A stretch of 57,699 nucleotides of DNA, counting the filler, from Squatina squatina (taxonomy: Eukaryota): assembly GCA_031763465.1 (NCBI GenBank). It is 2 parts of 2 records of this genome, joined end to end, with 100 filler letters (N's around TTAATTAATTAA, not from the genome) between each part and the next. Parts side by side here need not be neighbours in the genome. Positions count along the whole stretch, not along the records: positions 29,971 to 57,699 come from JARFOE010000219.1; 1 more part is not named here. The stretch is one strand, 5' to 3'. The notes under the pieces were generated by a model. The model was not told the DNA's origin. It worked only from the letters and a program-made list of their open reading frames with translations, and ran no database searches. The position numbers were made by a program, and so were the translations under genes. Of this stretch, positions 30,963-33,900 are shown in pieces; the first letter of the stretch is position 1, and every line of letters starts with the position of its first letter.

Positions 30963-33900
30963 GTCACCCCACCTGTTTGCAGTTCACAGTAAATATGACT
31001 GCAGCTGTGAAAACCTATCACTGGCAGTGTATTGAGTGCAAATCCTGTAGCCTGTGCGGGACTTCTGAAAATGACGTAAGTTTTTTTATGTCTTCGTCAT
31101 CCTGTAACCTACGAATAAAACAATTTTAGTTAGAAGCCGTTAATCCAGTGGTTGTGGGTCCCCCCAGGTGCTCTCTGGCCTTATTTACTGAGTAGCGAGG
31201 GGGACCTGGGGTTGATCCCTGGTCTCTGCTGCATTGGCTGAACTTAGTTTAAGTGGTGGTTGGCCGCCACAGCTTGGATGAAGAAGGAAGAATGGTTAGA
31301 TTTGCAGGTTGCCATTGTGACCCACCTTACCAGATAAGGACTTATTCGAGGTTCCCGGCCATTAAGAATGTATGGTGTAGCTAAAACCAAGCTGTTCTGC
31401 GTTCAAGTTTCAATCTTCGCTTTGGTCTTTACACCAGCTTTTGGAACTTGCCAAAGTTTCTGGATGATCCACTAGACTTGTTTTAACGCTCTCAATGAGC
31501 CAATAGAACAATGTTCTTTCCAACAATTGCAGGCACTCGGACATCAGTTAGCAAAGCATTGTTGATGTAAGTACAGGCATGCAGTGCTCTGCGTTCTCCC
31601 AGTTTGAGTATGAACTGAAATCCACAGTATCACAGACTGCTGCTGCATAATGTTATCACTGACTCCTGCTGGGGTACTGTCTCACTGGCACCTGCTGGAG
31701 GACAGTATCACTGACTCCTGCTGGAGTCCGGTATCACGGACTCCTGCTCGGGTATGGTATCACTGCCTCCTTCTGGGGTGCGGTATCACTGACTCCTGCT
31801 GGGGTACAGTGTCACTGACTCCTGCTGGGATACGGTATCAATAACTCCCGCTAGGATATGGTATCACNNNNNNNNNNNNNNNNNNNNNNNNNNNNNNNNN
31901 NNNNNNNNNNNNNNNNNNNNNNNNNNNNNNNNNNNNNNNNNNNNNNNNNNNNNNNNNNNNNNNNNNNAGGCTCGAAGGGCCTAATGGCCTACTCCTGCAC
32001 CTATTTTCTATGTGTCTCTCCCTCCCTCACTCACTCACCCGTGTCGGGGTTGATCTTCGCCTTGTTGATGCTGCACGCCAGCTCGGTCAGCACCTTCTTG
32101 CTGCCGTTCATCTTCCAGTTGCCTCCGACGAAGAACTTGCGGGTCATGGTTGCTCTTGAGGCGGGCGGAGGGCGGTGAAGGTGAGGTGAGCGGGCGGCTG
32201 GGACGAGGGCGGGCCCGGGCCGGCGCGGCTGCTTTTATAGGCTCCCCGCCGGCCTGTGTCGTCACAGAGGGAGGGGGCGGGGCCCTGGTCGCCTGCCCCT
32301 CCTCCTCGCCTGCCCCTCCTCCCAAACCCAGACTTTACTGGGCTCCTTTTCACCTTCTTCACTTCTACTCATTACGGAGCTTCCTCAAAATGAAAATGCA
32401 CACTCTGGAAAACGTCGGTAGTTTTTGGCATTCGTTAATTTGCAGTTTCAGACAATTTTGAGGGCTTTTTTTTTTATGTGTACAGATCTCCTAAATCTTG
32501 GTGAATTTATAAATTTGAATTCTCTTTTTATTTTCTAGGACCAGTTGTTGTTTTGTGATGACTGTGATCGTGGTTATCATATGTACTGTTTAAACCCACC
32601 AATGGTGCAGCCTCCAGAAGGTACAGTATTCCATTCACAGCCATCAGAATATGATTTGAAAGTTTCTGAAGTCTCGGGGGTGTTGGCTCTCACTCCCTCA
32701 CTTGGCTCCATTGAGTTTTGCCACCTTAATCTCAATGCATTTTCTTTCCATAGATAGAGTTCTTCCAAAGCTCCTAGGCAATGTCAGTTTGCCTCCGTGT
32801 CCCGTTTTATAGATCCTGTCAAATTTTGAAACATTACTGGCATTTATCAGGCAAGCATTTGGCAGATGTGGCCTGAGTGTCAGTGACACAAGTGCCAGTG
32901 TATTGCCTGTGACACTCCTACTCTTCAAAAGGTAGTGATGCCTGCGGGCTCTGACAGGCTTCAAACTGGCCATTTGTCACTGAGTGTTTAGGTGGCTCAT
33001 GCGACCATATTATCTGACTGTACAAGGCATCATGACCGGGCTTGGTCCCGTCAGCCCCTGATGTCCAGTGACATGCATTTTCCAGGCAGGAGCTGAAGTA
33101 GGAACCCTGGCTGTTCTTTTTTAAAATTACCCAGTCCAGAAAGGTTTACATAAGAATTAGGAGTAGGCCATTCGGCACCTCGAGCCTGCCCCGCTATTCA
33201 ATGAGATCATGGCTGATCTGATTCTGACCTCAACTCCACTTTCCTGCCTGTCCCCCATAACCTTTAACTCNNNNNNNNNNNNNNNNNNNNNNNNNNNNNN
33301 NNNNNNNNNNNNNNNNNNNNNNNNNNNNNNNNNNNNNNNNNNNNNNNNNNNNNNNNNNNNNNNNNNNNNNTGTAAGGGACCAACATTTTCTTTGGCTATT
33401 CTCTTCCTACTTGTATACTTATAGAAGCTGCCGTGCAGACATCAGCTAATTCAGCAGAGGGAGATTATTGATCTTGGAGCCTTTCTGCCCTGTGTGACTG
33501 AGGACCACTCTGGTACTTTGCCTAACAGAGCCACCGGCAAGCCTACAACTGTAGTGCTTCAGGAAGGAAGTGAGGCCCTGGGTGGTGATGAGTCCAGCAA
33601 TGGTAGGACAGTTGAACCTGCAGTTGTGTTCCTGCCCTCCAAATACTCAGAGGGAACGGTAGCATAGTGGTGATGTTACTGGACTCTTGTCTCCAGATCA
33701 TTAGTCCAGGCCTCTGGATTATGAGTTCAAATCCCATCATAACAGTTAATTAAATAAATCTGGAATTGACCATGAAACTACCAGGTCGTCAAAAAAAAAC
33801 AACTGGTTCACTAATGCCCTTTAGTGAAGGAAATCTGCTGTCCTTACCTGATCTGGTTTCTATAATCCACAGCAATTGTCCTTTGTAATAGCCCAGCAAG

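Follow-up and report, generated by a model that had tools for sequence, protein, structure and literature searches.

In Squatina squatina, exon 1 of TPI1, a CpG island with TATA and GC boxes and the penultimate coding exon of DPF3 share one gap-free contig of 1.3 kb (31968-33270, zero N). Positions refer to the window, the whole 57.7-kb stretch of DNA that was analysed. As assembled, the TPI1 exon falls between the consecutive DPF3 exons 30963-31075 and 32539-32620 and lies on the opposite strand, whereby the left side of this arrangement depends on a scaffold gap. The original prediction of an antisense TPI exon 1 within a DPF intron, opened by an ACCATG start and closed by a GTGAGT donor, is borne out: on the minus strand, the ATG at 32147 stands in ACCATG, the coding sequence runs from 32147 to 32039 and the donor GT occupies 32038-32037. 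The same holds for the ungapped contig with a DPF exon about 390 bp away, as this exon starts at 32539—392 bp from the TPI ATG. The features of the locus are:

30963-31075, plus strand: DPF3 coding exon, third from last, from the end of PHD1 to the start of PHD2
31624-31867: 26-bp minisatellite at the left contig break point
31868-31967: unsized gap of 100 N, with the far end of the TPI-derived DNA inside
31968-32017, plus strand: tail of a high-copy SINE-like repeat at a contig break point (further copies lie at 18989 and 12982; each of the two runs gives a summed depth above 2e5)
32018-32038, minus strand: start of TPI intron 1 (GT donor 32038-32037, context GGTGAG)
32033-32330: CpG island (68% GC; 26 CpG; observed/expected 0.76 vs 0.40 for the window)
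32039-32147, minus strand: coding part of TPI1 exon 1, 36 codons and 1 nt, with a phase-1 end within the E37 codon
32148-32210, minus strand: likely 5' UTR of about 63 nt, free of upstream ATG, its start site inferred from the TATA position
32234-32239, minus strand: TATAAA box, 92 bp upstream of the ATG
32331-32538: transition from the CpG island to the AT-rich end of the DPF3 intron; no repeat found; holds the unmapped insertion or misjoin point
32539-32620, plus strand: DPF3 penultimate coding exon, PHD2
34417-34487, plus strand: DPF3 last coding exon with stop

Host gene, exon 1 and its upstream region

Only the last three coding exons of DPF3 are held by the window. Residue matches identify the host as DPF3 rather than DPF1: over the 88 residues of these exons, 80-86 are identical to 14 DPF3 proteins vs 76-78 to two shark DPF1 proteins (2 of 19 rows were left out as they lack the anchor motif, and one row is a fragment), and the best 8 of 398 matches to the upstream DPF exon are all chondrichthyan DPF3. 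DPF1 as the host is ruled out by the same two comparisons. The diverged DPF3 fragment model of Mustelus asterias (P0033) stops at the same intron that holds the TPI exon in Squatina squatina.

The identity of the TPI exon was probed by several searches. An HMM of 17 vertebrate TPIs hits it with an E of 3.7e-14, the next best of 2709 six-frame pieces reaching E 4.8. Against PDB, its peptide finds 75 sequences at E<=0.001, and all of the best 60 of these 75 are TPI; in a protein search with the same peptide, 15 of 27 candidates were accepted, and shark TPIs take the first three places. Pfam missed the exon at E 0.001, and hence blank Pfam results are not counted as absence. The 109-nt coding sequence ends at the first base of the E37 codon in TPI P0002, so that the phase-1 donor fits a full-length TPI. 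In elasmobranch TPI1, the intron likewise lies in the E37 codon, and the S. torazame model reads an identical G-E through the donor.

The conserved N-terminal TPI motif is present and the frame is open. All 17 of the 17 columns that are conserved in at least 87 of 97 TPIs are retained, and V19 of the exon occurs in 0 of these 97 sequences. Third-position GC amounts to 35/36, vs 39-53% in the DPF3 exons. By its sequence, exon 1 is undamaged and bears no sign of decay—which suits a selected gene, a young copy or a true gene within a misjoin equally. The TPI1 gene of vertebrates comprises seven exons, and its promoter is of the TATA/GC-box type. In Squatina squatina, GC-box hexamers are found on the minus strand at 32323, 32280, 32212, 32197, 32175 and 32168, a 17-bp exact tandem duplication lies within the CpG island at 32289-32322, and CpG observed/expected is about 1.0 across exon and UTR. 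The elements of the promoter that had been claimed at the outset are hence in place, while its activity is predicted from them: the TATA/GC region might well be an active promoter. A processed retrocopy, already dismissed in the original prediction, is rejected here too, since donor, intron start and upstream TATA/GC region are all present and exon 1 is not joined to exon 2.

TPI and DPF3 in other cartilaginous fishes

Comparison with known TPIs places exon 1 within the shark lineage of TPI1. Elasmobranch TPI1 (Heptranchias XP_067832961.1, Heterodontus XP_067881232.1, S. torazame XP_072333693.1) has the same N-terminal sequence, with 83-89% identity to the two closest. Per 35 residues, 4 differences are counted to Heptranchias, 6 to S. 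torazame, 7 to Pristiophorus, 9 to Heterodontus and 10-13 to four rays and a chimaera; exon 1 is therewith nearer to Heptranchias (4/35) than Heptranchias is to Heterodontus (8/35). An ancient TPI paralog from a whole-genome duplication is rejected, as the exon stays within this shark range, at 4/35 from Heptranchias. A phylogeny of 55 TPIs groups all elasmobranch-type rows, 7 named and 2 unnamed, into a single clade (99/97); it excludes two sequences as too short, namely the window exon and the incomplete model of S. torazame. The latter model, P0003, comprises 114 residues, in which exon 1 is followed directly by the last two exons, and lies on a sequence of 200,542,129 bp; no full-length S. 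torazame TPI is among the matches listed.

Whether the nesting is shared was assessed in five other cartilaginous fishes by comparing the lengths of the sequences that bear TPI and DPF3 (in bp):

Heterodontus: TPI 85,425 vs DPF3 130,974,252
Mobula birostris: TPI 112,019,601 vs DPF3 254,321,047
Hemitrygon: TPI 3,049,126 vs DPF3 210,652,115
Hypanus: TPI 715,313 and 498,457 vs DPF3 212,297,639
Narcine: TPI (P0006) and DPF3-like (P0437) both on a sequence of 376,162,909

In four of the five species, the two genes lie on sequences of different length. TPI is thus off the DPF3 sequence in Heterodontus, Mobula birostris, Hemitrygon and Hypanus, whereas in Squatina squatina a distance of 392 bp separates its exon 1 from a DPF3 exon, with exons 2-7 unseen. 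Because of this separation, an ancestral, clade-wide nesting is disfavoured by the comparison. The equal length in Narcine either counts against this non-ancestral reading or arises by chance on a very large chromosome; the spacing of the Narcine RefSeq accessions (TPI and DPF3 are 2674 numbers apart) was set aside, as numbering is an unreliable map. In three of the four differing species TPI is on a short sequence, which may represent an unplaced alternative haplotype—Mobula is the cleanest case. Heptranchias, whose TPI is on a 63,877-bp sequence, and S. torazame stand outside this comparison, as the 15 listed of 30 cluster members include no DPF3 row for either.

TPI seems to be a difficult locus in these genomes: in four elasmobranchs it sits on short contigs of unplaced size, from 64 kb to 3 Mb, and internal exons are absent from the S. 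torazame and Pristiophorus models. TPI1 is presumably located near CD4. According to an excerpt of PMC10768021, which makes no mention of TPI, the CD4/LAG-3 region often fails in shark assemblies, and an excerpt of PMC10620051 adds that GC-rich, repeat-rich loci also assemble badly in sharks.

Gaps, missing exons and the junction

The window consists of 26 pieces with a median of 1428 bp, and its gaps are mostly exactly 100 N. The unsized gap next to the TPI exon starts 71 bp beyond the exon end, and the SINE-like repeat has its end 21 bp inside TPI intron 1. Neither tblastn with five TPI proteins, full or partial, nor the HMM of 17 TPIs, run on 2709 six-frame pieces, reveals any of TPI exons 2-7 in the window; the original statement that no TPI exon from the second onward is found in 29971-31867 therefore stands and extends to all 57.7 kb. 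As a control of the HMM, a held-out shark TPI was cut into 11 slices: 10 of them reached E<=4.4e-4, and the final one, of 10 residues, failed. The minus strand of 31076-31867 carries neither a 3' part of TPI nor a poly(A) signal.

How much such an absence is worth can be gauged from NUMB, which lies directly downstream of DPF3 on the plus strand (45441-55461) and most of whose PTB-domain exons are missing across gaps. Two of its exons correspond to parts of the 156-residue construct 1wj1, namely residues 8-31 and 57-81; the remaining PTB-domain exons were not found by motif in six frames, nor among all 68 plus-strand frames of at least 22 residues read in 45500-51200. Pfam is too insensitive here, as it recovered neither of the two known NUMB PTB exons at E 0.05. 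Scaffold gaps hence likely hide whole exons, and because the 100-N gaps of the same scaffold also swallow NUMB exons, the absent TPI exons 2-7 are no evidence of truncation. In the NumbF exon, RQGSFR is followed by GVP, where GFP is usual. Within a NUMB intron, at 49196-49826 on the plus strand, lies the decayed end of a LINE-like reverse transcriptase with a C2H2 finger.

A complete, working TPI gene, moved or duplicated, might accordingly be nested antisense in the DPF3 intron, with exons 2-7 in the gap and a normal TPI mRNA transcribed against DPF3—a possible but rather doubtful reading. It would account for the 17/17 conserved columns, the intact frame and donor, the third-position GC of 35/36 and the CpG ratio of about 1.0, and the gap in question is flanked by a minisatellite and a SINE-like repeat, nearby gaps of such kind hiding NUMB exons. 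TPI is, moreover, badly assembled in other elasmobranchs too, and an unbroken contig would suit single-copy sequence. However, a whole multi-exon gene must then land 300 bp from a host exon, the arrangement is absent from four of five relatives, the minus strand 31076-31867 bears no TPI 3' part or poly(A) signal, and internal genes are typically short, intronless and tissue-specific, as stated in an excerpt of PMC8467205.

The join between TPI-derived and DPF3 DNA can itself be questioned. Over 32103-33086 no shared repeat was detected, bar a trace near 32300 in two sequencing runs of another organism (which on 29971-34863 covered repeats only, not the DPF3/TPI exons), and a self-comparison of this interval with the rest of the window gave a best match of only 22 bp. 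GC declines gradually in 100-bp windows (75-64-46-40-30%), and a CpG excess extends to about 32440, which is a weak signal with 4 CpG and p between 0.03 and 0.14 depending on the background. These indirect signs lean weakly toward a real join, since they would miss a lineage-specific repeat, as well as a chimeric read where GC is high and coverage low. Neither an insertion boundary nor a target-site duplication could be located at the junction. A SINE-like repeat in intron 1 that copied TPI by read-through was considered and is unsupported: the right boundary shows no plus-strand poly(A), and the left boundary is in the gap.

It is hence unlikely that the contig is chimeric, i.e. that the promoter and exon 1 of the true TPI1, whose locus is GC-rich and hard to assemble, were wrongly joined to the DPF3 intron within 32330-32538. 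Such a misjoin would lack a repeat in 32103-33086 to seed it (best window match 22 bp) and would leave the gradual GC fall-off and the weak CpG excess to about 32440 unaccounted for. Yet the assembly is fragmented, with 26 pieces in 57.7 kb, and the spacer at 29871-29970 looks artificial. The real gene would be expected to show a perfect exon, and the two genes are mostly apart in relatives. A metagenome scan returned 0 matches for the TPI exon-end pattern and 1 for the DPF exon pattern; the latter, a DPF-family locus (L001) with 379 upstream bases devoid of a TPI match, looks like a bony-fish gene, and neither result bears on the join.

Possible origins and their meaning

The arrangement is probably a real insertion, be it partial or complete. 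Tentatively, and on odds somewhat below even, it is read as a 5'-partial, lineage-restricted DNA-level duplicate of TPI1, antisense in the intron before the DPF3 penultimate coding exon. This partial copy is slightly preferred over the complete gene, as short dispersed copies are in general expected to be commoner than moves of whole genes. A DNA-level copy would have taken only the 5' end of TPI1—the TATA/GC-box CpG island, exon 1, the donor and the intron start. The copied piece would reach from a point at most about 200 bp upstream of the GC-rich region to one within TPI intron 1, inside the gap, with the parent TPI1 staying elsewhere. If still firing, the island would send short antisense transcripts into DPF3, and no TPI enzyme would be made. 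Copying at the DNA level is suggested because promoter-like region, exon, donor and intron start are all kept, and a recent age because exon 1 lacks decay; the truncation is likewise presumed.

Several observations are consistent with the partial copy: the exon lies in the shark range, the genes are apart in four of five species, third-position GC contrasts with that of the host, the junction bears no repeat, and no exon 2-7 occurs in the window. Against it speaks that a short-read contig would tend to break at a duplicate that is very young and nearly identical, while this contig spans about 360 bp of TPI DNA; also, TPI and DPF3 of Narcine are on sequences of equal length. The three options raised originally—nested gene, transposed module, chimera—thus remain the right set with none eliminated, except that an old, clade-wide nested gene is disfavoured by four of five species. 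It is improbable that, in this shark lineage, the working multi-exon TPI1 left its usual locus and now resides within DPF3 in antisense orientation, with 300 bp between its promoter and a DPF3 exon; in that event, transcription of a highly expressed glycolytic gene would run head-on through a gene for chromatin remodelling.

Nested antisense protein-coding genes are of a known kind, and it would be unusual for the passenger to be a housekeeping gene with several exons. In an excerpt of Assis 2021 (PMC8467205), the internal gene likewise lies in an intron and on the opposite strand in 220 of 296 human simple pairs, and nested genes usually originate by insertion of a young duplicate; the internal genes described there are mostly short, intronless and tissue-specific, whereas the Squatina squatina TPI piece has an intron, stems from a housekeeping source and is predicted only. 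Partial gene duplicates do occur in shark genomes, e.g. the diverged DPF3 fragment model of Mustelus and the CD4 fragments of catshark (PMC10768021). In the catshark case (section 3.2), a piece of an intact gene was likewise copied at the DNA level; the CD4 fragments adjoin their parent gene, whereas the TPI piece has an unrelated host gene and retains its promoter-like island. The literature searches listed no paper that links TPI to DPF3, and the supplements of PMC11406177 and PMC10620051 gave 0 matches. The group to which this shark belongs is reported as slow to rearrange in an excerpt of PMC11406177.

If the gap holds a whole gene, the nested pair would have an intron-bearing housekeeping gene as its passenger, which is rare, and would let transcriptional interference be tested in a natural setting. 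A fragment would amount to a portable CpG-island promoter dropped into a gene body, which is of modest weight unless DPF3 output changes. In the partial as in the complete case, an active island would be expected to transcribe against DPF3. A misjoin would be a caution about the Squatina squatina assembly.

In the gap at 29871-29970, a 12-base spacer is flanked by 44 N on either side, which sets it apart from the plain gaps of 100 N, and this spacer resembles an all-frame-stop linker. The join at this position is likely artificial, putting unrelated scaffolds together. Left of it lies an unrelated minus-strand gene with SEA repeats, outside the main finding: repeated SEA-domain exons of a mucin-like gene span 221-29382 (near 221, 3180, 4436, 12631, 15285, 17331 and 29349), and the gene presumably resembles MUC16. 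CpG-rich patches free of Pfam matches are also present at 776-1325 and 8150-8700, and long minisatellite arrays with 49-bp and 55-bp units extend over 36677-42541 and 19045-21151.
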